Assembly: GCA_964399675.1 (NCBI GenBank)
Contig: CAYNRK010000003.1
Coordinates: 73,033-137,032, forward strand
Source of the DNA: an uncultured Gammaproteobacteria bacterium
GTDB taxonomy: Bacteria > Patescibacteriota > Patescibacteriia > UBA9934 > GWF2-40-263
Length of the DNA stretch: 64,000 nucleotides
Reading direction: 5' to 3'
The position numbers and the translations under genes are program-made. The notes beneath the pieces were generated by a model, which worked only from the letters and a program-made list of their open reading frames with translations, searched no databases and was not told the origin of the DNA. This document shows positions 2 to 44,604 of this stretch, piece by piece; the first letter of the stretch is position 1, and every line of letters starts with the position of its first letter.

Positions 2-1765
2 TTTTCAATCCAGGTTGATGAACCTGAGCTTTGTCCAAAGTATTCAGCAATTTCAATTGAGAATGTAAAAGTTGGGCCATCGCCTTGGTGGATGCAAAAA
101 AAGCTCATGTTTGCCGGGTTTAAACCGATCAATAACATTGTGGATATTACAAACTATGTTTTGCATGAATACGGACAGCCATTACACACGTTTGATGCAG
201 ACAAGCTGGAGGGTGAAAAAATTATTGTTAGAAAAGCAAAAAAGAATGAAAAGTTTTTAGCACTTGATGAGAACGAATATAAATTGTCATCTGATCAGTT
301 GGTGATCGCAGATGAAAAGCAAGCTGTTGCTGTTGCCGGTGTAATGGGTGGGGAGCTTACCGGGACAACTGAAAACACAACCCGAGTGCTTATTGAGTCA
401 GCGACTTTTGATCCAGTTTCTGTGAGGCAAACTTCCAGAGCGCTTAATCTTTATTCAGATTCACAACTACTTTTTGAAAAAGGTCTTTCAACAGAATCAA
501 CCAAGCCCGCGCTTGCAAGAGCTGTTGAGTTGATTTTGGAACTTGCAGGAGGAGAAGTCGCTTCAGGTGTGTTGGTTGAGGAAGCAAAAACGTACGAGCC
601 ATTGGTCTTTGATTTCAATCCAACAAAAGTTAATGAACTAATGGGAGTTGAATTAAAAGAAGAAGAAATGGCGAGTATTTTAAAACAATTAGGATTTCAA
701 GTAACCCCCCCTAACCCCCCCTTGAAAAGGGGGGGAACCTACAAAGTAGTGGTTCCGTATTGGCGCGATCGTGATATTGAAGATCCAGTTGATTTTACAG
801 AGGAGATTGCGCGAATATATGGTTATGAAAAAATTCCACCCATTCTTCCTCAGGGAGATTTGTCAGAGCAAATACCAGATTCAAGTTTGTTTTGGCGTCG
901 GCGCATTAAACAGATTTTAGCTGGTGCCGGGCTTACAGAAGCGTATTCATATTCTTTTGTTTCTGAAAAACAGATTGAGTTGTTTGATTGTAGCCAGGTC
1001 ATGAAACTAAAAAACCCACTCAATAGCGAGCAAGAGTATTTGCGTCAGTCACTTTTGCCAAGCATGCTTACTACAGTTGCTGCTAATCAAAAAAGATTTT
1101 CAGAAGCTGAGTTGTTTGAAACAGCCCCTGTGTACAAAGCGCAAAAAAATGACAAGCCAAAACAAATTCAAAAATTGGTTATTGCGGTTTATGGCAAAGA
1201 TGGGGTTGAGTCGTTTTCGCACGTAAAAGGAATGCTTGAGAGATTGTTTCGCCAGACCGGAATTACAGATTGGAGTTACAGTCGCGATGATTTTCGAGAC
1301 CATTTGCATACTGGGCGTCAGGCTCGGGTGTTTGTTGGTAAAGAAGATGTGGGCTGGATTGGGCAGGTAAATAATGAGTTGAGCCAGGCTTTTGATTTAG
1401 ATGTTGATGTTGTGGTGGCAGGACTTAATATTGATCTGTTGATTCCAATGTTTTCAGTAAATAAATCATACACACCTCTTCCGCAGTTTCCGTCTGTGAA
1501 ACGAGACCTTGCGTTTGTTGTTGACGAGAGTGTGGAATATAAGACAGTTGTTGATGTTATTGAAAAAGAAAGTGCATTGGTTGGTAATGTTGGTTTGTTT
1601 GATGTGTATCGTGGTAAAGGAATTGAAAATGGAAAAAAGTCAATTGCAATACATATGGATTTCCTTGCTCAGGATCGTACGTTGGAATCAGAAGAGGTTG
1701 ATGTAGAGCTTGAAAAAATTCGCACTGTGCTGCAAAAGAAATTTAGTGCTATAATGAGATCGTAA
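2..1765 (+). CDS. pheT: phenylalanine--tRNA ligase beta subunit, 5' end outside the window
   Basis: The frame is open from nt 2, and the annotated Met at 92 is internal. The translation has PheT B3/B4-like (PINNIVDITNYV), B5 and C-terminal anticodon-binding-like regions. A 39 bp palindromic element sits in-frame at 702-740. Confidence 0.85.
   Translation, partial: FSIQVDEPELCPKYSAISIENVKVGPSPWWMQKKLMFAGFKPINNIVDITNYVLHEYGQPLHTFDADKLEGEKIIVRKAKKNEKFLALDENEYKLSSDQLVIADEKQAVAVAGVMGGELTGTTENTTRVLIESATFDPVSVRQTSRALNLYSDSQLLFEKGLSTESTKPALARAVELILELAGGEVASGVLVEEAKTYEPLVFDFNPTKVNELMGVELKEEEMASILKQLGFQVTPPNPPLKRGGTYKVVVPYWRDRDIEDPVDFTEEIARIYGYEKIPPILPQGDLSEQIPDSSLFWRRRIKQILAGAGLTEAYSYSFVSEKQIELFDCSQVMKLKNPLNSEQEYLRQSLLPSMLTTVAANQKRFSEAELFETAPVYKAQKNDKPKQIQKLVIAVYGKDGVESFSHVKGMLERLFRQTGITDWSYSRDDFRDHLHTGRQARVFVGKEDVGWIGQVNNELSQAFDLDVDVVVAGLNIDLLIPMFSVNKSYTPLPQFPSVKRDLAFVVDESVEYKTVVDVIEKESALVGNVGLFDVYRGKGIENGKKSIAIHMDFLAQDRTLESEEVDVELEKIRTVLQKKFSAIMRS
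702..740. mobile_element. short palindromic element (family 3, CCCCTAACCCC...CTTGAAAAGG core) inserted in-frame in pheT
   Basis: The sequence is cccccctaaccccccCTTGAAAAGGgggggaacc. Related copies occur at 21178-21243 and 44524-44604. It encodes the odd PPNPPLKRGG stretch in PheT. Confidence 0.6.
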
Positions 1766-1766
1766 T

Positions 1767-2081
1767 ATGTTTTCACCTCTCGACATTCTCTACATTGTTC
1801 TTGCGTTTTGTGCGTTGTGGTTTACAGCTGCAATCTTTTGGCTTATTTGGCAGATCGCGAGTATTTTTCGAAACGTGAATGAAACACTTGCTGAGGCTCG
1901 TGAGAAAATGGTTTTGATTGAAAAAGCACTAACAGGGATTCGGCAAAAGTTTGAAAGCACAACATCGGTTTTAGGTGTTGTTGTGGAGACTGCATCAAAA
2001 ACCGTTGACTATCTACTTGATAAGAAAAAAGAGCCAAAGAAAAAGAAACCAAGAAAAAAAGGAAAAGTGATTGATTTATAG
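1767..2081 (+). CDS. small membrane protein with lysine-rich C-terminal tail, hypothetical
   Basis: ORF of 104 aa with an N-terminal hydrophobic helix and a KKKEPKKKKPRKKGK tail, followed by an intrinsic terminator. Confidence 0.5.
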   Translation: MFSPLDILYIVLAFCALWFTAAIFWLIWQIASIFRNVNETLAEAREKMVLIEKALTGIRQKFESTTSVLGVVVETASKTVDYLLDKKKEPKKKKPRKKGKVIDL

Positions 2082-2087
2082 AGAAAA

Positions 2088-2111
2088 TAAACAGGGCCAA
2101 GGCCCTGTTTT
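2088..2111 (+). terminator. rho-independent terminator
   Basis: Hairpin aaacagggccaaggccctgttttt (GC stem followed by a T-run). Confidence 0.7.
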
Positions 2112-2145
2112 TGAATTTCTGAAAAGGTAATGATAAGCTCTTTGT

Positions 2146-2268
2146 GTCATATCGACCGGGTATTATTTCTTGTCATCTCGACCGGAGGCCCGTCAGACGG
2201 GCCGGAGCGGAGAGATCTCGAATATGCGAGATCTCTCGGCTCGACAGGTGTCTCGCTCGAGATGACAA
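2146..2268. mobile_element. MITE-like palindromic repeat, family 1 (TGTCATCTCGACCG ... CGAGATGACA termini)
   Basis: Terminal inverted repeats tgtcatctcgaccg/cgagatgaca enclose an inner palindrome ggagagatctcgaatatgcgagatctctc. Six more copies are present in the window. Confidence 0.75.
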
Positions 2269-2274
2269 AAATGT

Positions 2275-5200
2275 ATGTCAAAGTTTGTCCATCTTCACAC
2301 ACATTCCCACTTTTCATTACTTGAGGCTTTGCCAAAAACAAAGGATCTTTTGAATCATGTTAAAGAATTGGAAATGGATACGGTTGCTGTGACAGATAAT
2401 GGAACAATGTACGGAGCGATCGAGTTTTATCAAAAGGCTGTGGCAATGAATATCAAACCCATAATGGGAGTTGATTTTTATCTTGCTCGTAATGGCCGTC
2501 ATCAAAAGCGTGCGCGCGTTGACAAAAAATCACATCGTCTTGTGTGTTTGGCTGAGAATAATGCCGGTTACAAAAATTTGATTCAGCTTTCCTCTATTGG
2601 TTTTTTGGAGGGTTTTTATTATAAGCCACGAATTGACAAAGAAATTTTGTCATCACTTACCAATGGTTTGATTGCGCTTTCCGGAGGGCACATGAGTGAG
2701 ATTGATGAGTTTTTGCGTCTTGATCGCGCAGATGAAGCGGAAAAAGTTATTCTTGAGTATGTAAAAATGTTTGGTGAAGGAAACTTTTTTCTAGAGTTGG
2801 TTGATCGACCAGAGATTGGTGAACAAGAGGCAGTAAACACTCAGCTTATTGAGCTTTCAAAAAAACTTAATGTTCCCACTGTTGCCACAAAGAATACATT
2901 TTATTTAAGACCGCAAGATGTTGAGGCGTGGAAAGTTTTGAATTGCATTAAGGGCGGCAAAACACTTGAGCAGTTCGATCGCATGAATCAGTTTGATTAT
3001 GATGCATCCATGGTTAGCGGTAAGTATATGGAAGCGCGTTTTAAAGATGTGCCTGAGGCGATTGAGAATACGCGTCGCATTGCTGATCGATGCAATGTTG
3101 AACTTAAGCTTGGGGAGTGGAACTTTCCGCAGTTTGTTATTCCTGAGACAAAAACGTTTAGGCAAGTTCTAACTGACAAAGCATATATAAGTCTTGAAAA
3201 AAAGCTTGGCAAGTTAACCGATGAAATGAAAGAGCGCATGGAGTATGAGCTTGAGATTATTGATCAGAAAGGTTTTTGTCCTTACTTTTTAATTGTGTCT
3301 GACTTTATTAACTGGGCTCGTGAGAATGGAATTGTTACAACAACACGTGGATCTGCCGCAGGTTCGCTTGTAAGTTATTCAATTGGAATTTCTTCAATCA
3401 ATCCACTGACATATGAATTGCCGTTTGAAAGATTTTTAAATCCTGAAAGACCGTCCGCTCCTGATATCGATGCTGACTTTGCTGATAACAGACGCGATGA
3501 GGTTTTGGATTATGTGCGAGAAAAGTATGGTCATGAAAAGGTGGCTCAGATCTGTACGTTTGGAACAATGCTTGCGCGCGGTTCTGTTCGAGATGTTGGG
3601 CGGGGTCTTGGATTTGAATACAGCATGGTTGATGAGATTGCAAAACTTGTTCCAATGGGGTCGCAAGGTTTTCCAATGACACTTGATCGTGCCCTTCAAG
3701 AATCAGTTGATCTGAAACAAAAATATGATACAGATGCAAATGTTCGTCGTGTTATTGATTTGGCTCGTCAAATTGAAGGTTGTTCGCGACATGTTTCCAT
3801 TCATGCTGCCGGCACAGTAATTTCACCAACTGATCTTACAGACTTTACGCCATTGCAAATTGATACGCGCGAGGGAAAAGTGATTACGCAGTATGAAATG
3901 AAATCTGTTGAGTCAGCCGGGCTTATAAAAATGGACTTTTTGGGAATTCGCAACTTGTCGATTTTGGGAGATGCAATTGCGCTTGTTAAAAAAACAAAAG
4001 GAATTGATATAGAACTTGAATCAATTCCAATTGATGATAAGAAAACCTTTCGATTATTGGCCAATGGACAGACAATGGGTGTGTTTCAGTTGGGTGGAGA
4101 AGGAATGACAAAGTATTTAATGGATCTAAAACCAACGCGTGTTGAGGACATTATGGCAATGGTGGCTTTATATCGTCCCGGTCCTATTGAATCAATTCCA
4201 GAGTACATCCAACGCAAACACAACCCATCTCTTATTTCATATTTGGATGATCGAATGCGAGACATTTTGAAAAAATCAAACGGAGTGATTGTTTATCAGG
4301 ATGATGTGATGCTTATTGCAATTCATTTGGCAGGTTATTCCTGGCTTGAAGCGGATAAATTAAGAAAAGCAATGGGAAAGAAAATTCCAGAGGAAATGGC
4401 AAAACAAAAAGTTAAATTGCTTGAAGGTTTCGTTGAGCACGGGCTTTCAGAAGATCAATCACAGCGATTGTGGAAATTGATTGAGCCATTTGCTGCTTAT
4501 GGATTTAACAAGAGTCATGCTGCAAGTTATGGAATGGTTGCGTATCACACTGCTTTTATGAAAGCAAATTATCCGGCTGAGTACATGACAGCGCTTATGA
4601 CTGCAGAGTCCGGAGATCTTGATAAGGTTGCAGAAGCTGTTCGTGAGTGTGAGCGTATGGGGATTGAAGTGTTGTCACCGGATATTGATGAATCGCGAAA
4701 ACACTTTACCTACATTGATGACAGCACAATTCGTTTTGGTTTGTTAGTGATTAAAAATCTTGGAGATGAGGTTGTTGAAACAATGATTGAAGAGCGAAAA
4801 CAAAATGGCTCATACAAAGACCTTACTGATTTTGCCGGCCGTGTTGCGCACAGAGCGTTTAATAAAAAGTCTCTTGAAGCATTGATCAAAGCTGGGGCGC
4901 TGGATAGATTTGCAGAAAGAAAAAGACTGCTTGAGAATGTGGATCGGATTCTCATGCACAATAAAAATATTCAAAAAGAAAAATCAGCAAATCAGCAAAG
5001 TTTGTTTTCTTTGGCTCCGGACGCAATTGATTCGGGAATTTCATTAAGAGATGTAGAGCCGGCAACAACCAAAGAGTTGCTTGTATGGGAAAAAGAACTT
5101 TTGGGTATGTATGTTTCAGCGCACCCATATGAACAAGTTGAAAAAGAGTTAGGTAAACATTTGTTGGCTTGCAATGCGCTTGACAGCAAAAAAAATCGTT

Positions 5201-5799
5201 CAGAAGTTCGTTGTGGGGGAATTGTTACGTTCTCAAAAGAAATTGTTACAAAAAAAGGTGATCCAATGGCGTTTGTTGGCCTTGAGGATATTAGTGGAAG
5301 AATGGAAGTTGTTGTGTTTCCGCGCGTGTATCAAAAAGCTCGGCACTTGTTGGAAGAAGATGTTTTGGTTCTTGTTTCAGGAAAAATATCAAAACGATCA
5401 GGTGAAGATACAAAATTGCTAGCAGATGAATTCATGGAGATTAAAGAAGAAAGACTGGAAAAGATGAAAACAATGCTTGCGCAAGGTGATTGGTTTCAAG
5501 ATAAAACTCCTGAATTTGTTCCGCAAGAAAATACACAGGAAAATACACAAAATGAACCCGAGGTTGTTCTGCATAGTGGTTCTTTGTCAATTATGTTAAA
5601 GGGTAAACCAACCCCAGACATGATTAAGCATTTGCGTAAGATTTTGCAGGCTTCCCCTGGAGACCAAACAGTCTGCTTGCTTGTTGAGTCAGGTGGTAAG
5701 ATGCGACAAATTCAAACAGATTATTCTGTAAGTGTGACAGATGATATGGTTGAAGAAATTGCGCAGTTGGTCGGGCGACAGAATGTGTCTGTGGTATAA
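2275..5799 (+). CDS. dnaE: DNA polymerase III alpha subunit
   Basis: 1174 aa. The N-terminus has a PHP-domain start (FVHLHTHSHFSLLEA), followed by polymerase core, OB-fold and C-terminal regions. Confidence 0.9.
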   Translation: MSKFVHLHTHSHFSLLEALPKTKDLLNHVKELEMDTVAVTDNGTMYGAIEFYQKAVAMNIKPIMGVDFYLARNGRHQKRARVDKKSHRLVCLAENNAGYKNLIQLSSIGFLEGFYYKPRIDKEILSSLTNGLIALSGGHMSEIDEFLRLDRADEAEKVILEYVKMFGEGNFFLELVDRPEIGEQEAVNTQLIELSKKLNVPTVATKNTFYLRPQDVEAWKVLNCIKGGKTLEQFDRMNQFDYDASMVSGKYMEARFKDVPEAIENTRRIADRCNVELKLGEWNFPQFVIPETKTFRQVLTDKAYISLEKKLGKLTDEMKERMEYELEIIDQKGFCPYFLIVSDFINWARENGIVTTTRGSAAGSLVSYSIGISSINPLTYELPFERFLNPERPSAPDIDADFADNRRDEVLDYVREKYGHEKVAQICTFGTMLARGSVRDVGRGLGFEYSMVDEIAKLVPMGSQGFPMTLDRALQESVDLKQKYDTDANVRRVIDLARQIEGCSRHVSIHAAGTVISPTDLTDFTPLQIDTREGKVITQYEMKSVESAGLIKMDFLGIRNLSILGDAIALVKKTKGIDIELESIPIDDKKTFRLLANGQTMGVFQLGGEGMTKYLMDLKPTRVEDIMAMVALYRPGPIESIPEYIQRKHNPSLISYLDDRMRDILKKSNGVIVYQDDVMLIAIHLAGYSWLEADKLRKAMGKKIPEEMAKQKVKLLEGFVEHGLSEDQSQRLWKLIEPFAAYGFNKSHAASYGMVAYHTAFMKANYPAEYMTALMTAESGDLDKVAEAVRECERMGIEVLSPDIDESRKHFTYIDDSTIRFGLLVIKNLGDEVVETMIEERKQNGSYKDLTDFAGRVAHRAFNKKSLEALIKAGALDRFAERKRLLENVDRILMHNKNIQKEKSANQQSLFSLAPDAIDSGISLRDVEPATTKELLVWEKELLGMYVSAHPYEQVEKELGKHLLACNALDSKKNRSEVRCGGIVTFSKEIVTKKGDPMAFVGLEDISGRMEVVVFPRVYQKARHLLEEDVLVLVSGKISKRSGEDTKLLADEFMEIKEERLEKMKTMLAQGDWFQDKTPEFVPQENTQENTQNEPEVVLHSGSLSIMLKGKPTPDMIKHLRKILQASPGDQTVCLLVESGGKMRQIQTDYSVSVTDDMVEEIAQLVGRQNVSVV

Positions 5800-5810
5800 T
5801 ATTTGTTGAT

Positions 5811-7025
5811 ATGCCAACAAAAAAAAGCGCTCCGAAAAAGCGAGTGCCAGTGAAAAAAACTACAAGGAAAAAAGTTAAGCCAGTTGAAAAGATTTCCATT
5901 CAACGACCAAGCGCTATCCCGCTTGTGCTTTATCGTAGGATTGCGATCAGCTTTGTTGTTATTGTTGCAGCAGCGCTTGCAAGTGTTTTATATCTTTCTA
6001 CAATGCAGGCGGTAATTATTGTTGACTCAACTCAGTCTCCGATCACAGCAGAGTTGGTGCTTCACACAAGGGAAGTTCCTGTGAGTGATGGGCAAATTAA
6101 GGCGCAGATTTTTGAGCGTACAATTGGAAAAACAAAATCATTTGTGCCAAGTGCTGAAGGTGCAGAGGAAGTGGTTGGTACTGCAACAGGAAAAGTTACA
6201 ATTCATAGCACAGCAAGTTTTAATCAGCCACTTGTAAAAACAACCCGTCTTTTAACTGGGGATGGAAAACTGTTTCGGCTAAGCAGTGGAGTTACCGTGC
6301 CAGCTGGTGGAAGTGTTGAAGCTGGTGTTTATGCTGATGTTGATGGTAAAGAAGGTGATATAGGTCCAACACGTTTTTCAATTCCAGGACTTTCCGAGGT
6401 AAGACAAAAGTTGATTTATGCAGAAAGTTCAGATGCGTTTGTTGGTGGGGTGAGTACTATTTCAGTTGTGAGCGAAGATGAGTTGGAAAATGCTGCGAAA
6501 GTAGTTGAGCAAGAACTTGTTGATGAAGCGCAACAGGTTATGAAAGCGGAAATGGATCAAGAGTTTTCCGGTGAGTCATTGAGTATAGAAGTGACTCAAA
6601 AAGAGTTTAGTATTAAACCAAACACACAGGCTGACAAGTTTGATGTAACAATGACACTTAAGATTGGCGCGGTTTATTACGATCGAGCAGCTGCGGAAAA
6701 TATTGCGGTTCGAAAGTTGTATGAAGGTCTTGGTAAAGGTCAGGCTTTCACCAATGTTCTTTCAGATGAAATGAAAGTTGAGGTTCAGCAGTTTTCACAA
6801 TCAACCGGACGCGCAGTTATTCACGTGAGTCTTTCAGGACAAACAATTACTTCAAAAACTTCAGCAGCGCTTGGTGTGAGTCGGTTTGTTGGAATGACAG
6901 AGGAAGAGGTTAGGCAGTTGTTGTTACAGGAAGAAGTTGCTGAGTCAGTTGATGTGGAATTTTTCCCATTTTGGGTGAGGCGAGTGCCAAGGCTCAAGGA
7001 TCATATCTATATTGAGATTCGGTAA
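5811..7025 (+). CDS. hypothetical membrane-anchored protein
   Basis: 404 aa with a basic N-terminus, a single TM helix (IAISFVVIVAAALASVLYL) and a large extracytoplasmic domain. No family recognised. Confidence 0.5.
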   Translation: MPTKKSAPKKRVPVKKTTRKKVKPVEKISIQRPSAIPLVLYRRIAISFVVIVAAALASVLYLSTMQAVIIVDSTQSPITAELVLHTREVPVSDGQIKAQIFERTIGKTKSFVPSAEGAEEVVGTATGKVTIHSTASFNQPLVKTTRLLTGDGKLFRLSSGVTVPAGGSVEAGVYADVDGKEGDIGPTRFSIPGLSEVRQKLIYAESSDAFVGGVSTISVVSEDELENAAKVVEQELVDEAQQVMKAEMDQEFSGESLSIEVTQKEFSIKPNTQADKFDVTMTLKIGAVYYDRAAAENIAVRKLYEGLGKGQAFTNVLSDEMKVEVQQFSQSTGRAVIHVSLSGQTITSKTSAALGVSRFVGMTEEEVRQLLLQEEVAESVDVEFFPFWVRRVPRLKDHIYIEIR

Positions 7026-7069
7026 GAGGTTTTTGACTTATTTTTTCTTGGTGTTAAACTGAAAGCAGA

Positions 7070-7345: not shown

Positions 7346-7346
7346 T

Positions 7347-7610: not shown

Positions 7611-7623
7611 GGAGCCATGGGGT

Positions 7624-7699: not shown

Positions 7700-7710
7700 A
7701 AAAAGAAATC

Positions 7711-7746: not shown

Positions 7747-7765
7747 GTTGTCTTCTTGCGAGTAG

Positions 7766-10850: not shown

Positions 10851-11016
10851 AGAAATTTATGGAAATAGATTGAAATAGATTCAAAATATGGAAATAAATA
10901 GAAATAGATTGAAATAAGCAGAAATTTGTTGAATACAACTTAATTTCTATAAGTTTCTACCTATTTCCGTACTCTGAACCTATTTCCACATATTTCTACT
11001 ATATTTCAATAACAAT
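10851..11016. repeat. GAAATAG(ATT) iteron-like array arranged as a long imperfect inverted repeat upstream of thrS
   Basis: The left half ggaaatagattgaaatagattcaaaatatggaaataaatagaaatagattgaaat is mirrored by a right half ctatttcc...ctatttcc...atatttct...atttcaat around a near-palindromic centre. Confidence 0.6.
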
Positions 11017-12759
11017 ATGGACACAAAACAATTACAAAAAAACAGACATTCAATTTGCCACATGATGTCAATGGCGATTCTTGAGATTTATCCAAAAGCC
11101 GGGTTGGGTGTTGGGCCGTTTATTGAGAATGGTTTTTATCAGGACTATGATTTGCCTGAGCCAATCTCAGATGAGATTTTTGACGAGCTTGAAAAGCGAA
11201 TTAAGGAAATGATTAAGCAGAATATTGCGTTTGTTCAGCATGACATGTCTTTTGAAGATGCACTTAAGGAATACAAACACGATCCGTATAAAACAGAAAT
11301 GATCGAACAGCTAAAGGAGAAGGGGGAGAAGAGTGTTAGTTTTTTTAAGTCAGATGAGTTTGAGAACTTGTGCAAAGGGCCGCATGTTGGCACAACAAGT
11401 GAAATTGATCCAGACAGTTTTAAATTAACAAAAGTTGCTGGAGCTTATTGGAGAGGGGATGAAAAGAAAAAAATGCTTACGCGTATTTATGGTGTTGCGT
11501 TTGCAAACAAAAAGGAACTTGATGCGCATTTAAAAATGTTAGAGGAAGCTGAAAAGCGTGATCACAGAAAAATTGGTCAAGAACTGGATCTGTTTCACTT
11601 TTCAGATCTTGTGGGATCAGGCCTGCCTTTGTTCACAGAAAAGGGGACAGCAATTCGTGACGTTCTTAAAGATTTTATTTGGGATCTCATGAAGCCGTAC
11701 GGATATACTCGTGTGACAATTCCTCATATTGCAAAGTCGGACTTGTACAAAAAATCAGGCCATTGGGATAAATTTGCTGATGATATTTTTCATGTTTCAA
11801 GTCAGAAAACAGAACAGAAGTTTGTTATCAAACCAATGAACTGTCCTCATCACACTCAACTTTACGCAGCCCGTCCGCGATCATACAGAGATTTGCCGAT
11901 TCGAATGAGTGAAGTAACTGCTGTGTATCGAGATGAGAATACTGGACAACTTCAAGGTTTGTCTCGGGTTCGATCGATTACGCAGGACGATGCGCATGTA
12001 TTTTGTCGCATGGATCAGGTTGAGGAAGAGGTGTTGGCACTCTACGACATTGTGAAAAAGTTTTACGCTGCTTTTGACATGCCTCTTAATGTTGCTCTTT
12101 CTCTGAGAGACCCAAAGAAACCTGAAAAGTATTTGGGTGATGATAAAGTTTGGGAAAAGTCAGAAGGAACACTTAGAGACGTTCTTAAGAAATTGAAGAT
12201 CGAGTTTGTAGAGGAAGAAGGTGAGGCAGCTTTTTACGGACCAAAGATTGACTTTATTGCCACAGATGCAATCGGACGTAAATGGCAGCTTGCCACAATT
12301 CAGTTGGATTTCAATTTGCCTGAAAGATTTGAGCTTGAATATATTGATTCTGACGGAAAAAAGAAACGTCCAGTCATGTTACATAGAGCGATTTTAGGTT
12401 CGGTTGAAAGATTTTTGGGGGTGCTTATCGAGCACTATGCTGGAGCGTTTCCTTTTTGGCTTGCGCCAGTGCAGGTTAGGCTTGCAACAGTGAGTGAGGA
12501 TTATGTTGAGTTTGCGGAAAAGTTGAAAGCGGATTTGTTTGAAGCTGGGATTCGTATTGAGCTTGATGGGTCAGCAGAAAAAGTTGGAAAGAAGATTAGA
12601 AATGCTGCCAAGCAAAAAATTCCGTGGACAATTGTGATTGGGAAAAAAGAAGCAGAAGGAGGTGACTTCACAGTAAACGCGTTTGGCAAAGAAGAAGATC
12701 TGACAATATCTCAAGCTGATTTCGTAAAAGAAGCCCAAAAGCAAGGTTCAATTAAATAG
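11017..12759 (+). CDS. thrS: threonine--tRNA ligase (short form lacking N-terminal TGS domain)
   Basis: 580 aa with class II aaRS motifs and the ThrRS catalytic and anticodon-binding regions (HRKIGQELDLF, MNCPHH, FYGPKIDF). Confidence 0.9.
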   Translation: MDTKQLQKNRHSICHMMSMAILEIYPKAGLGVGPFIENGFYQDYDLPEPISDEIFDELEKRIKEMIKQNIAFVQHDMSFEDALKEYKHDPYKTEMIEQLKEKGEKSVSFFKSDEFENLCKGPHVGTTSEIDPDSFKLTKVAGAYWRGDEKKKMLTRIYGVAFANKKELDAHLKMLEEAEKRDHRKIGQELDLFHFSDLVGSGLPLFTEKGTAIRDVLKDFIWDLMKPYGYTRVTIPHIAKSDLYKKSGHWDKFADDIFHVSSQKTEQKFVIKPMNCPHHTQLYAARPRSYRDLPIRMSEVTAVYRDENTGQLQGLSRVRSITQDDAHVFCRMDQVEEEVLALYDIVKKFYAAFDMPLNVALSLRDPKKPEKYLGDDKVWEKSEGTLRDVLKKLKIEFVEEEGEAAFYGPKIDFIATDAIGRKWQLATIQLDFNLPERFELEYIDSDGKKKRPVMLHRAILGSVERFLGVLIEHYAGAFPFWLAPVQVRLATVSEDYVEFAEKLKADLFEAGIRIELDGSAEKVGKKIRNAAKQKIPWTIVIGKKEAEGGDFTVNAFGKEEDLTISQADFVKEAQKQGSIK

Positions 12760-14789: not shown

Positions 14790-14802
14790 TAGTTATTTAT
14801 TT

Positions 14803-14931
14803 TGTCATCTCGACCGAGCGAAGCGAGTGGAGAGATCTCGAATTTACAGGATCGATCATTCAAGATTTCTCGGCTCGCGGAGCCTGTCCTGAGCGAACGA
14901 AGTGAGTCGAATGGGCTCGCTCGAAATGACA
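14803..14931. mobile_element. MITE-like palindromic repeat, family 1
   Basis: tgtcatctcgaccgagcgaagcgagtggagagatctcgaa...cgaaatgaca, lying between miaB and miaA. Confidence 0.75.
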
Positions 14932-14968
14932 TTAGTAATTGATTGATCGAGACAACAAAAACAAAAAT

Positions 14969-20962: not shown

Positions 20963-21517
20963 ATGAAAGTTGTTTTAATAGCAGCATTATCTGCAGATGG
21001 AAAGATTGCTGAGTCTGATGACCAGCTTTCTTTAGATTGGACATCCAAAGAGGATTTGAAGTTTTTTGTAAAAAAGACAAAAGAGTGTGGGGTTGTGATT
21101 ATGGGGCGCAAGACATTTGAGACAATTGGTAAGCCTCTCAAAGACAGAAAACTTATTGTAATGACACGACAAGAAGTTCCCCCCTTTTCAAGGGAGCCCG
21201 CCCGGACGAACGTCCGTTCGGACGGGGACAAAGGGGGGTTAGAATTCGGAACAGTCGAATACACAAACGAACAACCCCGCGAACTCATTGACCGTCTCAA
21301 ACAAGAAGGTCACGACATGGTGGCCGTGGCTGGTGGTTCTACTATTTATAGTTTATTTTTAAAAGAAGGTCTTGTTACAGATTTTTATCTCACAGTTGAA
21401 CCGGTTTTGTTTGGTGATGGTATTCCTTTGGCAAAGGGTTTCAATCGAATTAATTTGAAATTAATTGATGTAACGCGTTTAGGCGAGCAATCAGTTCTTT
21501 TGCATTTTTCAGTTTAA
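20963..21517 (+). CDS. folA: dihydrofolate reductase, with in-frame palindromic element insertion
   Basis: MKVVLIAALSADGKIAESDDQL...VIMGRKTFETIGKPLKDRKLIVMTRQ is a DHFR pattern. It lies directly after thyA. A 66 bp element at 21178-21243 adds PPFSREPARTNVRSDGDKGGL. Confidence 0.75.
   Translation: MKVVLIAALSADGKIAESDDQLSLDWTSKEDLKFFVKKTKECGVVIMGRKTFETIGKPLKDRKLIVMTRQEVPPFSREPARTNVRSDGDKGGLEFGTVEYTNEQPRELIDRLKQEGHDMVAVAGGSTIYSLFLKEGLVTDFYLTVEPVLFGDGIPLAKGFNRINLKLIDVTRLGEQSVLLHFSV
21178..21243. mobile_element. palindromic element (family 3, CCCCCTTTTCAAGGG … GGGGGGTTAG) in-frame inside folA
   Basis: ccccccttttcaagggagcccgcccggacgaacgtccgttcggacggggacaaaggggggttag, with an inner palindrome cccggacgaacgtccgttcggacgggg. 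Confidence 0.6.
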
Positions 21518-26219: not shown

Positions 26220-26278
26220 ATTGAAATACCGCCCTCGTCTCCGAAGAGACAAGGGCGGCAGTGAGGACGGTTGCGATC

Positions 26279-27694
26279 TCAGTCGCGGATGTCCTTGAAG
26301 ATGGGGGTGAAGTACACCACCACAACGTACGGGGTCAGGCGGCGACCGTCGGCTTTGAAGATCACCTCATCACCTTCGCACGGGTAGTAGCGATGTCCAC
26401 CGCGTTCGTGGATGAACGTGGTGCTTCCGACCTTGACCGCCATCTGGATCTCGTCGCGGCCGATCCGGCGATTGTGGAAGGTGTCGCGCACGACCGTTCC
26501 GACCAGGAAACCGTTGTCTTCGAGTCGGCTGCGGAGCGTGTGCTCCAGGTCTGCGTGATTGAGCTTCAGACGACGCCAGGCTCGGTACACAACCATGGTG
26601 TTGGCACCGCCCAGCTTTTCGAGCACGACCTCGCGGAAGAACTTGCGAGCTTCCGGCTTGTCCATGCTGGCGCACAGGCTCAGCAGGAACGTGGCCAGGT
26701 TGTAGTGAGTCCAGTGCGAGGCCTCTCCGATCGGATCGAGCCTGAGAGCGACTGCACGCTTGGCTTCGTGCGGCAGCTCTTCGAGCACTGTCATGGGAAC
26801 CTGGCGCAGGTTGGTGAGACCCAGCGCCGCCCCTGCGATGAGCAGACCGCTTTTGACCGGCAGACGCAGTCGAAGATTACTCGCTGCCCTGAGCACCTCG
26901 TTGGGGCTCTTCTCTGCACAGATCTCGATGGCCTCAACGAGCTGATCGTTGTCCAGCATCCACCAGGGCTTGAGATCCATGTACTCGAGCCGGTCGTCGT
27001 TGTGGGCAACACCCTGACCCTCGACCTGCTCGATGAAGGCGTTGATGACCAGGTGCGGATGGGTCGCCTTGTCTGGCGAGAGCTCCGCCATGATCCTCGA
27101 CTGTGGCACACCCAGCAAACGCAGGTTGTTCCAGATTCCGCTGTTGGCCATGGAGTCGCTGCCGAGCCGCAGGAACTCGTGCACGTCGTTGGCCATGCCG
27201 CGTTTGACCTCCACCACGCGCAGGCGGTCGATGATCATCTGTGCGATCTCGTTTCGGCCGATGCCGTTCAGGATGGCCGCGACCAACCAGGCGTGGTTGC
27301 GCGCACCACAGTTGGTGTAGATCCAGCTGACCAGCTCCAAGCGACGATCGTCCCTGATCATCGACACCAGCTCGTTGCTGATGATGAAGCAGTTCAGCAG
27401 CCTGTAGCTCAGAGACCGCGCCGGATCATCTGCCGGCGCCTGCGAGTACACCTCGATGGTCTGATCGAGGAAGTCGGTCACGTCCACCATCAGAAACTCG
27501 AACATTTCCGGGTTGCGCAGGATCCAGGTCATTCCCATGGACGTGGGAATCGACCCAGCTCCAGCGTCGTCGATCGTCAGGACCCAGTTCCAGATGTCCT
27601 CGTAGGACACTCCACCTTCCTTGATCCTGGCCTCCCATGCTTCTCGGGCCAGGGGGAGCGCCTCGTAGCTTCCAATCTCTCTTCTCTCCAACAT
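26279..27694 (-). CDS. GC-rich foreign ORF C, hypothetical protein (about 471 aa from Met45 of the long ORF)
   Basis: Roughly 60% GC. On the minus strand there is a textbook promoter TTGACA-17-TATTAT and an SD ccGGAGGAcagATG. The composition is protein-like, and the plus-strand 525-aa ORF is its antisense shadow. No family recognised. Confidence 0.55.
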   Translation of the reverse strand: MLERREIGSYEALPLAREAWEARIKEGGVSYEDIWNWVLTIDDAGAGSIPTSMGMTWILRNPEMFEFLMVDVTDFLDQTIEVYSQAPADDPARSLSYRLLNCFIISNELVSMIRDDRRLELVSWIYTNCGARNHAWLVAAILNGIGRNEIAQMIIDRLRVVEVKRGMANDVHEFLRLGSDSMANSGIWNNLRLLGVPQSRIMAELSPDKATHPHLVINAFIEQVEGQGVAHNDDRLEYMDLKPWWMLDNDQLVEAIEICAEKSPNEVLRAASNLRLRLPVKSGLLIAGAALGLTNLRQVPMTVLEELPHEAKRAVALRLDPIGEASHWTHYNLATFLLSLCASMDKPEARKFFREVVLEKLGGANTMVVYRAWRRLKLNHADLEHTLRSRLEDNGFLVGTVVRDTFHNRRIGRDEIQMAVKVGSTTFIHERGGHRYYPCEGDEVIFKADGRRLTPYVVVVYFTPIFKDIRD

Positions 27695-27797
27695 CTGTCC
27701 TCCGGTCGCATAAAGCGAGTGAGGGAGCCTGGAAAATCCGTCCAGTACGGTTTTGGTGCAACTTGCACCAATCTCGGAATCGCACCGAGAACGACTA

Positions 27798-27826
27798 ATA
27801 ATAGCACAAAAATGCGGTTTTGTCAA
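27798..27826 (-). promoter_or_regulatory. sigma70-type promoter of gene C (TTGACA-N17-TATTAT)
   Basis: Minus-strand reading ttgacaaaaccgcatttttgtgctattat, with a perfect -35 and a 17 nt spacer. Confidence 0.5.
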
Positions 27827-27827
27827 C

Positions 27828-27856
27828 CAAAATACTAACCCCTAGGGTTAGTATTT
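27828..27856 (-). terminator. intrinsic terminator of rplA (perfect palindrome)
   Basis: aaaatactaacccctagggttagtatttt followed by T-runs on both strands. Confidence 0.65.
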
Positions 27857-38165: not shown

Positions 38166-38175
38166 TCATTTTTTT

Positions 38176-40328: not shown

Positions 40329-41459
40329 TCAACCCTGCTCAACCTCAAGAAGTTGTTTCACCTCTTCTTCTTTCAATGCATTGATTATGTTGTCGATTGC
40401 GCCATCCATAATTTCAGGGATGTCGTGGAAGTTTGTTTTTATTCTGTGGTCTGTTACGCGATCTTGCGAAAAGTTATATGTACGGATTTTTTCTGAACGA
40501 TCACCGGTTCCGATTTGAACGCGACGTTTATCTTCACGTTCTTTGCGTGCTTTCTCTTGCTCATGCGCAAAAACACGTGCTCGTATGATCGAAAGCGCAC
40601 GTTCTTTATTTTGTTTTTGCGATCGTTCTTCTTGGCAGTAAACCATCATGCCAGTTGGAATGTGTGTGATTCTAACTGCAGAGTAGGTTGTATTTACGCT
40701 TTGACCACCAGCTCCGGTTGAAGTCGTTGCTTCAATCTTCAGGTCCTTTGGGTCGATTTTAATGTCTACTTCCTCAGCCTCTGGCATGATTGCAATTGTT
40801 ACGGTTGATGTGTGAACACGTCCTTGTTTTTCTGTTTCAGGCACGCGCTGAACACGATGCACCCCGCTTTCGTATTTTAGTTTTGCGTAAACCCCGGTTC
40901 CTTTTATTGAAAAAATGACTTCTTTAAAACCACCAAGATCGTTCCGATTGGCTGAAATTAGCTCTGTTTTGAAGTTATTGCGTTCGGCAAAGCGTGTGTA
41001 AAGCCGCATCATTTCAGCTGCAAACAAAGACGACTCATCACCGCCCGCTCCAGCGCGAATTTCAACAATGATTCCTTTTTTGTCCATTGGGTCTTGTGGA
41101 AGCAGGGCAACAAGTAGATTTTTTTCTAGTTCTGGAAGTTTGGTCTCAAGTTCTACAATTTCTTCTTTGGCAAGTGCTTTCAGGTCTGCGTCATCATCTT
41201 GGGCTAAGGCAAGCTTTGCGTTTTCAAGATTTTTTTTAGCTTGTTCATAAGCTGCGCCCACATCAACAATTTCTTTTATGTGCGCGTATGCTTCATTTAC
41301 TTTTCGGATTTTTTGCGGATCAGAAAGCACCTCGCTGTCTGTGAGTTTTGTTTCAAGACTTTTCAGTTCTTGTTTTTTATTTTGAACTTGTTCGAGTAGA
41401 TTCATATTTTTTTGGAAATTAAAAACGTCCTTCAACAGAAAGACGTTTTTGTTCAACAT
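40329..41459 (-). CDS. prfA: peptide chain release factor 1
   Basis: GGQ motif (GAGGQSVNTTYSAVRITHIPTG) and a PxT-type RF1 region. Confidence 0.92.
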   Translation of the reverse strand: MLNKNVFLLKDVFNFQKNMNLLEQVQNKKQELKSLETKLTDSEVLSDPQKIRKVNEAYAHIKEIVDVGAAYEQAKKNLENAKLALAQDDDADLKALAKEEIVELETKLPELEKNLLVALLPQDPMDKKGIIVEIRAGAGGDESSLFAAEMMRLYTRFAERNNFKTELISANRNDLGGFKEVIFSIKGTGVYAKLKYESGVHRVQRVPETEKQGRVHTSTVTIAIMPEAEEVDIKIDPKDLKIEATTSTGAGGQSVNTTYSAVRITHIPTGMMVYCQEERSQKQNKERALSIIRARVFAHEQEKARKEREDKRRVQIGTGDRSEKIRTYNFSQDRVTDHRIKTNFHDIPEIMDGAIDNIINALKEEEVKQLLEVEQG

Positions 41460-41756
41460 TTATTCGTCAACTTTTTTCATTTCAGCTTCAGCCTTTTCTT
41501 TCTTTTGCGCAGCACGCTTTACGCGCTTTGCTTTCTTTCCGGTTGTACCTTCGGTCTTCTTGGCAGCACGAGCTTCAAATTTTTCAACACGTCTTGCTGT
41601 ATCAATTATCTTTTGCTTTCCAGTATAGAACGGATGACAGTTTGCACAAAGCTCTACTGAGATTTCTTTTAAAGTTGAACCAACCTCATACACGCTTCCG
41701 CATGCACAGGTGATCTTGGCGTTTTCAAAATATTCTGGGTGAATGTCTTTTTTCAT
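41460..41756 (-). CDS. rpmE: 50S ribosomal protein L31 with lysine-rich C-terminal extension
   Basis: MKKDIHPEYFENAKITCACGSVYEVGST...CANCHPFYTGKQK. Confidence 0.85.
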   Translation of the reverse strand: MKKDIHPEYFENAKITCACGSVYEVGSTLKEISVELCANCHPFYTGKQKIIDTARRVEKFEARAAKKTEGTTGKKAKRVKRAAQKKEKAEAEMKKVDE

Positions 41757-41837
41757 ACGTTTTTCGCTGAGAGTGTAGCAAGACCGATAAGACTTGTCAA
41801 TATTTGAAAGATCGGTCATGATAGTAATGTTTGCGCT

Positions 41838-43001
41838 ATGTTAACACAAGATTTTGACTATTATTTACCACAAAATTTGATTGCCCAGCAATCAGTGGAG
41901 CCACGAGACAACTCGCGGCTTATGATTTTAGATCGACAAACAGGGAAAAGGGAACACAAAGTTTTTCATCAAATTATTGATGAATTGGTTTCTGGAGACG
42001 TTCTTGTGATGAATAACACAAAAGTTTTTCGCGCTCGTCTTAGAACAATTGATGGAATTGAGGTGTTTTTGGTTCGAGCAAGATCTGGAAAGGTTTGGGA
42101 AGTCCTTATTCGTCCCGGACGAAAAGTAAAAATTAATCAAACTATTGAAATCAGTTCCTCGAAAAATAAGAAGACTAATTTACGCCGATCGTCGGAAAAT
42201 AGTCTTCAGTCTTTGTTTGGTCAAGTTCTTGGGAAGCACTCGAATGGAATTGTGTTAGTGAGATTTGATCGCGCTGCTGAAGATGTTGTTGTGTTTGCAA
42301 ATGAACACGGTGAGATTCCGGTCCCTCCTTATGTTGAACATCAACCTGATCGACTTGAGGATTATCAAACAGTTTATGCCGAGCACACTGGTTCAGTTGC
42401 TGCGCCAACCGCTGGTTTTCATTTTACAAAAGAGTTGATTGAAAAGTTAAAACAAAAAGGTGTTCAGTTTGAGTTTGTAACTTTGCATGTTGGACTTGGA
42501 ACATTTAGACCAATGAAAACAGAAACTTTGGAAGAACATGAAATGCACGCAGAGTTTGTGTCAGTTGATAAAGAAACAGCACAGCGAATCAATCAAGCAA
42601 AACAAGAGGGCTGTCGTGTTATTGCTGTTGGTACAACAACAGTGCGGACGCTTGAGGGCGTTGCCCGTATATGTCATCTCGAGCTTGCCGAGAGATCTCG
42701 AATATGCGAGATCTCTCCGCTCGCGGAGCCTGCCCTGAGCGAACGAAGTGAGTCGAATGGGCTCGGTCGAGATGACAATATTTTGAGATCTTTTACAGGA
42801 GATGTAAATTTATTTATCAAACCCGGATTCGATTTCAAGGTGATAGATGGATTGATAACAAACTTTCATTTGCCAAAGTCGACTTTGTTGGTTTTAGTTT
42901 CAGCACTTGCTGGGAGGGAGAATATTTTAAAAGCTTACAAAGAAGCTGTTGAAAAGAAATATCGCTTTTATTCGTTTGGTGATGCGATGTTTATTAGATA
43001 G
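41838..43001 (+). CDS. queA: S-adenosylmethionine:tRNA ribosyltransferase-isomerase, carrying an in-frame MITE insertion
   Basis: N-terminal FDYYLPQNLIAQQSVEPRDNSRLMILDR, plus PPYVEH and GTFRP blocks. A 105 bp family-1 MITE at 42672-42777 adds ICHLELAERSRICEISPLAEPALSERSESNGLGRDDNIL. Confidence 0.85.
   Translation: MLTQDFDYYLPQNLIAQQSVEPRDNSRLMILDRQTGKREHKVFHQIIDELVSGDVLVMNNTKVFRARLRTIDGIEVFLVRARSGKVWEVLIRPGRKVKINQTIEISSSKNKKTNLRRSSENSLQSLFGQVLGKHSNGIVLVRFDRAAEDVVVFANEHGEIPVPPYVEHQPDRLEDYQTVYAEHTGSVAAPTAGFHFTKELIEKLKQKGVQFEFVTLHVGLGTFRPMKTETLEEHEMHAEFVSVDKETAQRINQAKQEGCRVIAVGTTTVRTLEGVARICHLELAERSRICEISPLAEPALSERSESNGLGRDDNILRSFTGDVNLFIKPGFDFKVIDGLITNFHLPKSTLLVLVSALAGRENILKAYKEAVEKKYRFYSFGDAMFIR
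42672..42777. mobile_element. family-1 MITE inserted in-frame within queA
   Basis: tgtcatctcgagcttgccgagagatctcgaatatgcgagatctctccgctcg...ggtcgagatgaca. Confidence 0.75.
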
Positions 43002-43158
43002 TTGACGTTTTTTAAAGATTTGTTTATACTTTCGCGCATAAATAACCAACAGGTGGATTAAAGAGTTTTGGCTCCTCCCATGTAAATGGGTCCAGAAATC
43101 TCCACCGAAGCTACCCCCCTTCGCCAATGGCTTCGGGGGATAAAAAAGGAAAAAAATT

Positions 43159-43902
43159 ATGCCTAAACTACCTTCTGTGGTTGACATGCTCAAAGCGGGC
43201 GTGCACTTTGGCCACCGGACTTCTCGCTGGCATCCAAAAATGGAGCGATTCATTTTTGGTGCTCGTGGTGGAATCCATATTATTGATTTGGAGGAAACAA
43301 ACAAACAGCTCGAGGACGCTCTTAGCACGCTAAAACGTGTTGCTGAAAAAGGTGGAATCATTATGTTTGTTGGAACTAAGAGTCAAGCGCGACCGATTGT
43401 AAAGAAATATGCTGAGGCTTGCGGCATGCCATATGTGAACGAACGATGGCTTGGTGGAACGCTGACGAATTTTAAACAAATCAAAGAATCACTTAAGCGA
43501 CTTAAAAAGCTTAAAGATCAACGTGACAAAGGCGAGCTTCGTAAGTACACAAAGAAAGAGCGATTGCTTATCAGTCGGGAAATTGAAGACATGGAACGAA
43601 AGCTTGGTGGAATTGAGAATCTAACACGTATTCCAGATGCACTTTTTGTTTTAGATGTTCGAAATGAAAAGACTGCGATTCAAGAAGCTAAGGTCGTGAA
43701 CAAAAAAGTTGTTGCCATTTGTGACACAAACGTTAATCCAAATCTTGTTGATAAAATCATTCCAGCAAACGACGATGCTGTGAAGTCAATCGAGCTTATT
43801 TGTAGTTTGGTGCACGATGCAATCAAAGAAGGAAAAGCTCATGCAGCAAAAGCTGCCAGTGTGACAAAACCATCTCAAGAAAAAACAAAAGAAACAAAAT
43901 AA
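43159..43902 (+). CDS. rpsB: 30S ribosomal protein S2
   Basis: MLKAGVHFGHRTSRWHPKM... Confidence 0.92.
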   Translation: MPKLPSVVDMLKAGVHFGHRTSRWHPKMERFIFGARGGIHIIDLEETNKQLEDALSTLKRVAEKGGIIMFVGTKSQARPIVKKYAEACGMPYVNERWLGGTLTNFKQIKESLKRLKKLKDQRDKGELRKYTKKERLLISREIEDMERKLGGIENLTRIPDALFVLDVRNEKTAIQEAKVVNKKVVAICDTNVNPNLVDKIIPANDDAVKSIELICSLVHDAIKEGKAHAAKAASVTKPSQEKTKETK

Positions 43903-43915
43903 TCAAATTTATATT

Positions 43916-44503
43916 ATGTCCATAGATGCAAAGCTTGTTACACAACTTCGCGCACAAACCGGTGCGGGAATGATGGATGCAAAAAACGCGCTTGCAGAAA
44001 CTGACGGTGATCTTGAAAAAGCTGCAGACGCGCTTCGAAAAAAAGGTTTGGCAAAGGCTGCTAAAAAAGCAGATCGCGAAACCAATGAAGGTCGAGTGCA
44101 CGCGTATATTCATTCAAATGGGAAACTCGGCACTTTGGTTGAAATTTCTTGTGAAACGGATTTTGTTGCGCGTAATGAATCGTTTATTGAGCTCTGTCAT
44201 GATATTGCCATGCACGTGTGCGCGTCTGAGCCTTTGTACTTGAGTAGAGATGATGTGCCAGAAGATGTGGTTGAAAAAGAGAAAAGTATTTATCTTGAAG
44301 GAATGCAAGAGCAATCTAAGCCAGAAGATGTGGTGCAGAAGATTGTGGAAGGAAAGATGAATAAGTGGTTTTCAGAAGTTGTGTTGCTTGAGCAACCGTT
44401 TGTCAAAGACGATTCAATGACAATTGAAGGATTGCTAAAAGCAAAAATCGCGTCAATTGGTGAGAACATGCAGATCAAGAGGTTCTGTAGGTTTAGTTTG
44501 TAA
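43916..44503 (+). CDS. tsf: elongation factor Ts
   Basis: LRAQTGAGMMDAKNALAETDGDLEKAADALRKKG. Confidence 0.9.
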   Translation: MSIDAKLVTQLRAQTGAGMMDAKNALAETDGDLEKAADALRKKGLAKAAKKADRETNEGRVHAYIHSNGKLGTLVEISCETDFVARNESFIELCHDIAMHVCASEPLYLSRDDVPEDVVEKEKSIYLEGMQEQSKPEDVVQKIVEGKMNKWFSEVVLLEQPFVKDDSMTIEGLLKAKIASIGENMQIKRFCRFSL

Positions 44504-44523
44504 GTTTTTTTCAAAATCATAAC

Positions 44524-44604
44524 CACCCCTAACCCCTCCTTGAAAAGGAGGGGAATTATGCAAATCGAAAGTCCCCCTTTTCAAGGGGGACTACAGGGGG
44601 TTAG
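44524..44604. mobile_element. palindromic element family 3 (one to two tandem copies) downstream of tsf
   Basis: cccctaacccctccttgaaaaggagggg ... gtcccccttttcaagggggactacagggggttag. Confidence 0.55.

Follow-up and report, generated by a model that had tools for sequence, protein, structure and literature searches.

A short palindromic repeat lying in frame in pheT and folA of a Patescibacteria genome, with near-identical units in many phyla

How does a GC-rich palindrome come to lie in frame inside two essential genes of a single genome, and what allows it to persist there? This question is raised by a 64-kb stretch of DNA with a GC content of about 40% (contig CAYNRK010000003.1, positions 73,033 to 137,032; called here the window), whose phenylalanyl-tRNA synthetase β chain (PheT) and dihydrofolate reductase (DHFR) have, in protein searches, named homologs from Candidatus Uhrbacteria or Patescibacteria. 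A sequence-only reading of the window had located copies of a palindromic repeat, family 3, at 702-740 in pheT and at 21178-21243 in folA, both in frame, together with a tandem copy downstream of tsf. Both genic copies are found at these places and in frame, the pheT unit being delimited at 701-738 by a covariance model; the copy behind tsf is also present, but it is an inverted doublet, made of an outer stem and two hairpins, and not a tandem repeat. That family 3 is a second, independent repeat family is borne out by comparison with the larger palindromic family of the window (GTCATCTCGACCGAGCGAAGCGAG...GAGATCTCGAAT..., presumably family 1 of that reading), with which it has no sequence in common. 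The doublet form, the nested structure of the folA copy, the spread across phyla and the occupation of the same loops in many other Uhrbacteria are new with respect to the first reading. The explanation favoured here, with a probability of roughly 0.7, is that family 3 is a selfish element resembling repetitive extragenic palindromic (REP) sequences and Rickettsia palindromic elements (RPEs), whose insertions are filtered by selection.

The family-3 unit is 33-38 nt long, GC-rich, and has the consensus [AACCnCCCC][TAA][CCCCnCCTT-GAA-AAGGnGGGG]AA. Its parts are, in order, a 5′ (G/A)TAA foot, a first C-run, TAA and a perfect 9-bp C/G hairpin with a GAA loop, and its conserved core of 33 nt amounts to 11 codons. 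In the full form, which is an inverted doublet, the outer C-run pairs with an outer G-run. A covariance model built from 24 diverse units (alignment A2, model R1) finds exactly four units in the 64-kb window, with E-values of 3e-14 to 4e-10 for the three intact ones. The units and the genes that hold or precede them are as follows.

2-1765, plus strand: pheT, phenylalanyl-tRNA synthetase β chain; 5′ end cut by the start of the window.
701-738, plus strand: unit A, a singlet inside pheT; GTAA-CCCCCCC-TAA-[CCCCCCCTT GAA AAGGGGGGG]-AAC; encodes VTPPNPPLKRGGT; covariance model 53.9 bits, E 3e-14.
20963-21517, plus strand: folA, dihydrofolate reductase; Pfam DHFR_1 and RibD_C; 184 aa against a baseline of 165-166 aa.
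21178-21243, minus strand: unit B, antisense to folA and split by a nested insert; encodes VPPFSREPARTNVRSDGDKGGLE.
21197-21232, no strand assigned: nested GC-rich palindrome CCCGCCCGGACGAACGTCCGTTCGGACGGGGAC of about 36 nt, which interrupts unit B.
43916-44503, plus strand: tsf, elongation factor Ts; Pfam EF_TS; the doublet lies within its 3′ untranslated region.
44519-44556, plus strand: unit C1, left arm of the doublet; ATAA-CCACCCC-TAA-CCCCTCCTT-GAA-AAGGAGGGG-AAT; covariance model 53.8 bits.
44557-44567, no strand assigned: spacer between arms C1 and C2.
44568-44605, minus strand: unit C2, inverted right arm of the doublet; covariance model 40.4 bits.
44606-44640, plus strand: terminator-like hairpin with A-tract, stem and T-tract, AAAAATCCGCCATTAAGTGGCGGATTTTTTT, read from the sequence, downstream of the doublet.

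The pheT frame is unbroken and encodes the C-terminal 587 residues of PheT, with the Pfam domains B3_4, B5, tRNA_synthFbeta (catalytic-like, CLM) and FDX-ACB; orthologs show at most 62% identity to the window protein, and unit A falls within the B5 domain (residues 204-275). Unit B consists of a hairpin half (21178-21196) and a G-run/TTAG half (21233-21243), and the covariance model matches it as two partial hits on the minus strand (21180-21196 and 21209-21243). A segment similar to its nested palindrome is found in the same DHFR loop of another Uhrbacterium (L117); membership of the nested palindrome in another family of the window was considered and rejected, as only weak similarity exists elsewhere in the window. 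Unit C1 has the form present in many phyla (ATAACCACCCCTAACCCCTCCTTGAAAAGGAGGGGAAT), with 100% megablast matches to such loci, and unit C2 carries TGTAGT in place of TAA between its two C-runs. Unit ends vary: GTAA is found in genic Patescibacteria copies, ATAA, AAAA, TTAA or GCAA elsewhere, and GTAG only in C2, while CTAA adjoins the hairpin.

The two short cores are weak evidence by themselves; the whole unit exceeds chance. The pheT copy and the left tsf copy have 30 of 33 bases in common, and of the three mismatches two belong to one compensatory replacement of C:G by T:A in the stem. Each unit folds as the 9-bp hairpin with its GAA loop, and in the fold of the tsf pair two hairpins are enclosed by an outer stem (-22.7 kcal/mol versus -11.4 +/- 2.4 for shuffled sequences, z = -4.6). 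Over the family, 95% of the stem cells pair and 18 double-sided changes are observed, a level reached by none of 500 shuffles; the stem variants are CCCCTCC/GGAGGGG, CCCCCCC/GGGGGGG and CCCCCGCC/GGCGGGGG. Its position after the tsf stop codon and ahead of the terminator-like hairpin at 44606-44640 makes co-transcription of the doublet with tsf probable. A consensus terminator scan did not list the latter hairpin, possibly because its A- and T-tracts pair with each other, and picked up only the unit hairpin, on the minus strand. The unit was rejected as an intrinsic terminator, since it has no U-tract: what comes after the hairpin is AA(C/T) on one strand, and on the opposite one TTAGGGG. Rfam at the gathering threshold returned no family over the whole 64 kb (no tRNA, rRNA or known riboswitch) and no match at a permissive threshold around tsf, and a described RNA family or ribozyme was dismissed as the identity of the unit for this reason.

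Other hairpins occur in the window. A perfect GC-rich one, GTCTGCCCGCAGCTGAGCTGCGGGCAGAC (44641-44669), follows immediately after the tsf terminator-like hairpin. Hairpins made of a C-run and a G-run are present upstream of rpsB (43110-43145, CTACCCCCCTTCGCCAATGGCTTCGGGGGAT) and at 53999-54033 (CTCCCCGAGCTTGTCGAGGGGGGGGGG); they reach only 7-8 bits with the family-3 model and are probably either unrelated to family 3 or heavily decayed.

Alignments of the two proteins, the check that the first reading had proposed, show that the genic copies are lineage-specific in-frame inserts. The DHFR loop between the ..VMTR and VE(Y/F)T strands is 7-12 residues long in 61 of 120 orthologs versus 28 in the window (..MTRQEVPPFSREPARTNVRSDGDKGGLEFGTVEYT..), and the short form is also that of P0003 and P0014, the closest relatives when the loop is disregarded, P0003 being 74% identical outside it. 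Similarly, the PheT B5 loop (LGF.. to ..VPYWRD) measures about 8 residues in most of 120 orthologs versus 14 in the window, and about 110 of the 120 have no insert. Since the closest DHFRs and nearly all PheT orthologs are free of the insert, the extra residues follow the DNA palindrome rather than the lineage; conservation of these residues independently of the palindrome, which would have contradicted the first reading, was looked for and not seen. The same DNA unit is moreover intergenic behind tsf. A DHFR protein identical to that of the window is called on 8 contigs of independent sources.

AlphaFold models keep both folds with high confidence (mean pLDDT, the predicted local distance difference test, of 88.7 and 87.4). 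The DHFR insert is modelled as a low-confidence loop (residues 71-95) between strands E63-67 and E97-101, and the PheT insert at the tip of the β-hairpin E233-235/E247-250 of the B5 domain. Both inserts are thus predicted to occupy surface loops that leave the core fold intact, in line with the earlier claim that essential genes tolerate the insertion. Reading frames are restricted as well. One of the three sense frames of the unit is open (..PPNPPLKRGG..), the other two meeting TAA or TGA; of the three antisense frames, two can be read through (..PPLFKGGLGG.. and ..PPFQGGVRGG..) and the third meets TAG. All intragenic copies examined lie in open frames free of stop codons, and the frames with TAA, TGA or TAG are not seen in genes. 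In folA, the left half of the copy uses the frame that an intact unit would close with TAG; owing to a shift introduced by the nested segment, the codons of the right half become GGG GGG TTA, and this shift appears to keep folA open.

The same two loops are occupied repeatedly in relatives. Unit-encoded peptides (PPLFKGGLGG, PLLFKEGLGVV, PPLAKGGLGGV, PPKPPLIKGG and others) are found in the DHFR loop of 17 of the 120 orthologs, which a neighbour-joining tree disperses among insert-free sequences. The DNA of eight of these genes confirms the units, six of them antisense, one sense and one a full doublet, with differing loops and stem variants. Three DHFR genes that are about 85% identical in DNA carry CCCCTCC, CTCCCCC and CCCCCCC stems at the same site, one of them with the full doublet, and the changes among them match in both arms and in the outer run. 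The DHFR gene of L121 carries a family-3 doublet. The exact unit of the window pheT copy lies in the DHFR loop (L068) and in dnaX of another Patescibacteria genome; the L068 and window DHFRs share only about 64% identity, which speaks for activity in recent times and against an ancient relic. In PheT, the B5 loops of three other Uhrbacteria (L126-L128) hold units, all sense and all starting with GTAACC as in the window, that of L126 being a doublet. The pattern points to repeated insertion, replacement or conversion at the same loops, a single ancient event being insufficient; target preference, homing into resident copies or scarcity of permissive sites may be the cause.

The same DHFR loop also holds other recurrent insert types (..DSSPLFPPT.., ..GGKVxRWEGGEVKENGT.., ..DDSKEPRFP..) in P0008, P0032, P0049, P0066, P0076, P0041, P0044, P0079 and P0098; these may represent further repeat families. 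Just downstream of folA in L122 (2033-2232), two outward-facing family-3 units flank a family-1-like palindrome (TGTCATTGCGAGG...CTCGCAATGACA), an arrangement from which it follows that families 1 and 3 nest with each other.

Beyond Uhrbacteria, a pattern scan of one genome per species (CTAACCCC-N(0-30)-CCTTGAAAAGG) finds at least 116 loci, with about 86 of the compact form among the matches listed. Near-identical units are present in more than 10 phyla, including cyanobacteria, Bacteroidota, Armatimonadota/Abditibacteriota, Deinococcota, Nitrospinota, giant sulfur bacteria and other Patescibacteria. The sequence AACCACCCCTAACCCCTCCTTGAAAAGGAGGGGAA is found unchanged or nearly so in Thiomargarita, Thioploca, Raineyaceae, Armatimonadota, Abditibacteriota, Chitinophagaceae and Cytophagales, as well as in Ignavibacteria, Nitrospinota, Zixibacteria, Geobacteraceae, Saccharibacteria and several Patescibacteria; Kapaibacterium has the stem variant CCCCCGCC/GGCGGGGG, and several cyanobacterial orders have GATCCCCCCTAACCCCCCTTGAAAAGGGGGGAA. 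Mis-binning does not account for the spread, since many unit-bearing contigs have lengths from hundreds of kilobases up to megabases. The Abditibacteriota matches include a complete isolate genome. The doublet, in which another hairpin follows in inverted orientation together with a G-run that is complementary to the first C-run, occurs in Raineyaceae, Kapaibacterium, cyanobacteria and Thiomargarita.

Long open frames contain 10 of the 86 compact copies among the matches listed. The in-frame hosts, whose identities were taken from translated sequences alone, include a non-ribosomal peptide synthetase/polyketide synthase-like protein (Rivularia), methylase-like and prepilin-peptidase-like proteins, and the DnaX of a Patescibacteria metagenome-assembled genome (VTPPNPPLKRGGS, giving the same peptide as in the window PheT), together with the DHFR of that same genome. 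Flanking sequence common to different copies extends over at most about 190 nt, except in one 597-nt pair (L023/L054) that was left unexamined, and no transposase gene is found within flanks common to copies of different loci; such short common flanks give no sign of an autonomous parent element. A search of metagenome contigs for the exact pheT-type unit gave 0 matches, and a synthetic query of unit-encoded peptides against a word index gave only 2 candidates, too few to inform.

As a selfish element, family 3 would be a miniature palindromic repeat, non-autonomous and similar in behaviour to REP/REPIN sequences and RPEs, its copies spreading within and between genomes, probably as single-stranded hairpin DNA handled by a trans-acting enzyme. 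The leading candidate for this enzyme is an HUH/Y1 transposase akin to the REP-associated tyrosine transposases (RAYTs), because the foot tetranucleotide, the hairpin, the inverted doublets and the GTAA...TTAC ends make up the anatomy of elements processed as single-stranded DNA (REP/REPIN with RAYT, IS200/IS605). Granting a selfish element, a RAYT-like mobiliser is a serious candidate that falls somewhat short of even odds. Selection would then filter the insertions, a genic copy persisting only if it is stop-free and lies in a surface loop, and the surviving copies would be translated as flexible Pro/Gly-rich loops such as PPNPPLKRGG or PPLFKGGLGG. A stronger version, in which one ultra-small hairpin element with an 11-codon core, near-unchanged in more than 10 phyla, is active now and time and again gives rise to Pro/Gly-rich loops at identical permissive sites in essential enzymes, is tentative and, on balance, rather doubtful. 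If true, the element would be among the smallest and most widely distributed mobile elements known, and it might be moved by a novel trans-acting enzyme that recognises a foot of its own, (G/A)TAA / CTAA.

RAYT-like genes accompany 2 of the 116 loci among the matches listed, versus roughly 0.3 expected if 1-2 genes per 3-8 Mb genome are assumed. In Thioploca (L100), a family-3 unit lies 57 nt downstream of a RAYT, and in L040 a RAYT-like gene is 2.1 kb from a cluster of units. Next to folA in one Uhrbacterium (L121) is a gene for a 280-aa Y1 transposase with an NHYH motif, enclosed in an element with 26-bp inverted repeats (2068-2093 and 3139-3164) whose ends are unrelated to family 3; the phylum does therefore have Y1 enzymes. 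None of the four loci with such genes (L100, L040, the RAYT-like Y1 of L121 and the IS200-like one of L116) has a unit on both sides. In the Thioploca locus (3800-3960 and 5836-5870), classical GTAG-tagged REPs (GTAGGTCGGCAAnCCCTTGCCGAC) precede the RAYT and a second RAYT fragment comes just after the family-3 unit, two palindromic types being interleaved around one RAYT. In the window, a perfect 26-nt inverted repeat (56382-56445, GGGGTCAAGTCTAAAATCTAAACTTT and its complement, 12 nt apart) has the same first 12 bases as the 26-bp terminal inverted repeats of the L121 element and may be a remnant or miniature derivative of an element of that type.

Several observations weigh against a mobile selfish element. 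An empty-site allele of pheT gave 0 matches in metagenomes, and the protein search gave no close relative. The window contains no open reading frame (ORF) for a Y1 transposase, and no transposase flanked by cognate units was found; the upstream flank of the Thioploca RAYT is a different, GTAG-type REP, and family 3 has neither of the tags, GTAG and CGTC, that mark the described REP superfamilies. A target-site duplication is ambiguous: the pheT copy is flanked by AACC, yet AAC is a frequent 3′ end of units elsewhere. Recurrence in the same loop could reflect selection for a function. Plasmids and phages were considered as carriers and set aside as not obvious vectors, the few matches being one cyanobacterial plasmid, one microvirus (imperfect matches) and two IMG/VR contigs, and such rarity offers no evident route between phyla.

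Among the alternatives, the hairpin might be a functional cis-element placed repeatedly at the same positions by selection, with roles in mRNA stability or 3′-end protection, in slowing ribosomes for domain folding, in masking the Shine-Dalgarno-like AAGGAGG that it carries, or as G-quadruplex or cruciform DNA. Maintenance of the stem by compensatory changes would fit such a role, as would the location of all four window units in transcribed DNA, with the doublet between stop codon and terminator-like hairpin, the occupation of the same loops in many lineages, the conservation of the sequence across phyla and the reported stabilisation of mRNA by REPs (PMC3733652). However, most orthologs of pheT and folA have no unit, its orientation differs between orthologs, which a function at the RNA level would not tolerate, the host genes are unrelated, no Rfam family matches and no U-tract follows the hairpin, so that a cis-element is considered unlikely. 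Slightly less likely still is that the units are immobile, arising locally and being homogenised there through gene conversion, or through template switching among GC-rich hairpins already present, so that recombination would keep a few ancient insertions alike. The same-site elements of closely related DHFR genes do differ in concert, in both arms and the outer run, as conversion would give, and no transposase partner is found; yet donors and an initial spread would still be needed, dispersal is not removed, DHFRs with and without a unit are intermingled in the tree and identical units occur in different phyla. Gene conversion may thus contribute without explaining dispersal.

Two further explanations deserve much less credence. 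Genic copies could remain untranslated through translational bypassing or removal from the mRNA, as for GC-rich hairpins in some mitochondrial genes, an idea suggested by a stable GC-rich hairpin in a genome of about 40% GC and by the codon ACC on both sides of the pheT unit. Bypassing would not require the genic copies to be stop-free, as all those examined are, nor the avoidance of the frames with TAA, TGA or TAG, and AlphaFold accommodates the insert as a loop; this is accordingly judged highly improbable. Least credible of all is that the extra residues are ordinary variable-loop sequence whose likeness to the repeat is a coincidence or an assembly artefact. Both loops do vary in length among orthologs for other reasons too, but the covariance-model E-values of about 1e-14, the 30 of 33 bases common to genic and intergenic copies, the identical DHFR protein on 8 independent contigs and the same DNA unit in the same loop of other genomes all speak against it.

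Compared with known systems, family 3 shares most with REP/REPIN sequences, which are mobilised by RAYT (TnpA_REP) transposases (PMC3733652, PMC6006769, PMC3116915) and have been reported in frame within RAYT genes and other genes (PMC6006769; PMC3733652). Like them, it is a 20-40-nt GC-rich palindrome with an unpaired 5′ foot that is repeated in the genome, frequently forms inverted doublets with a larger fold (tsf, L121 DHFR, L126 PheT, Raineyaceae, cyanobacteria, Kapaibacterium) and lies downstream of genes, with occasional in-frame copies in replication, repair and tRNA-synthetase genes. REPs of the ‘double foot' kind belong to RAYT subclass 2.4, which is reported from Cyanobacteria, Bacteroidetes and scattered phyla (PMC6006769; PMC3733652); the GTAA...TTAC ends of the family-3 doublet resemble them, the distribution over phyla being similar too. 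Family 3 differs in its foot, (G/A)TAA plus a CTAA by the hairpin instead of the GT[AG]G or CGTC tag, in an extra C-run before the hairpin, in that no RAYT flanked by its units was found, and in a unit that is nearly identical across more than 10 phyla. To our knowledge, no REP family has been described as spanning more than a few related species, although the comparison at phylum level is our own deduction.

RPEs, which Ogata and colleagues are said to have described in 2000 inside functional housekeeping genes, and in frame with them, in a reduced genome, are about 100-150 bp long, CGTC-tagged and known only in Rickettsia. Family 3 has in common with them the palindrome, the in-frame position in functional ORFs at surface sites and the added peptide; it is not a member of that family, its 33-38-nt unit having no CGTC, an unrelated sequence and an occurrence in many lineages. 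The small dispersed repeats of Nostoc (SDR1-8) reportedly characterised by Elhai and co-workers in 2008 are hairpins of 21-27 nt with compensatory changes, nested in their own copies and in conserved sequence. Nested insertion (window folA and L117) and a hairpin with compensatory changes are likewise features of family 3, which is set apart from the description of SDRs by a longer unit and by its presence in many cyanobacterial orders and many other phyla. SDRs have been reported only from Nostocaceae (PMC5861425). Bacterial MITEs (transposable elements of the miniature inverted-repeat type; Nezha, Correia, RUP and others; PMC3184786, PMC10969869) are also non-coding, with a stable fold and occasional fusion to reading frames, and have terminal inverted repeats, as does the family-3 doublet with its inverted ends AACCnCCCC/GGGGnGGTT. 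However, MITEs are 70-400 bp long, with terminal repeats that match a parent insertion sequence and clear target duplications, neither of which was found for family 3.

In-frame palindromic repeats in housekeeping genes have thus been known since the Rickettsia RPEs and the documented intragenic REPs (PMC3733652, PMC6006769, PMC3184786). A literature search by sequence motif and topic found no description of the family-3 element; its foot, tiny size, presence in Patescibacteria, near-identity across phyla and recurrence in the same loops are likewise undescribed in the literature searched. If confirmed, the presence of such elements in core enzymes of reduced, gene-dense Patescibacteria affects gene calling, ortholog alignment and phylogenomics, because variable ‘loops' would be repeat DNA. 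A short sequence near-unchanged in many phyla would imply, if confirmed, either horizontal spread of a tiny element with its mobiliser or a common recognition system, neither of which was found described in the literature searched. The two recurrently occupied loops would then be a natural experiment in which selfish DNA makes protein insertions and reveals the sites that tolerate them.

The remaining features of the window concern other repeats and one segment of unusual composition. The larger palindromic family has copies at 2163-2243, 14799-14934, 42655-42780, 50058-50186, 56456-56654, 59219-59302 and 61855-61923. The copy at 42655-42780 lies inside queA, whose product has 387 aa versus a Pfam profile of 322 positions, and the copy at 61855-61923 lies inside the ORF at 61762-62895. 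Between a dCMP-deaminase-like gene and rplA, a 1.6-kb segment (26261-27838) has 54.5% GC and open frames of more than 500 aa on both strands, with no Pfam or NCBIfam match, and may be of foreign origin; in a related Uhrbacterium (L120), different genes occupy the space between these two neighbours. Finally, a short tandem array of GAAATAGATT-like units of about 10 nt (10852-10916) is found upstream of the ORF at 11017-12759.

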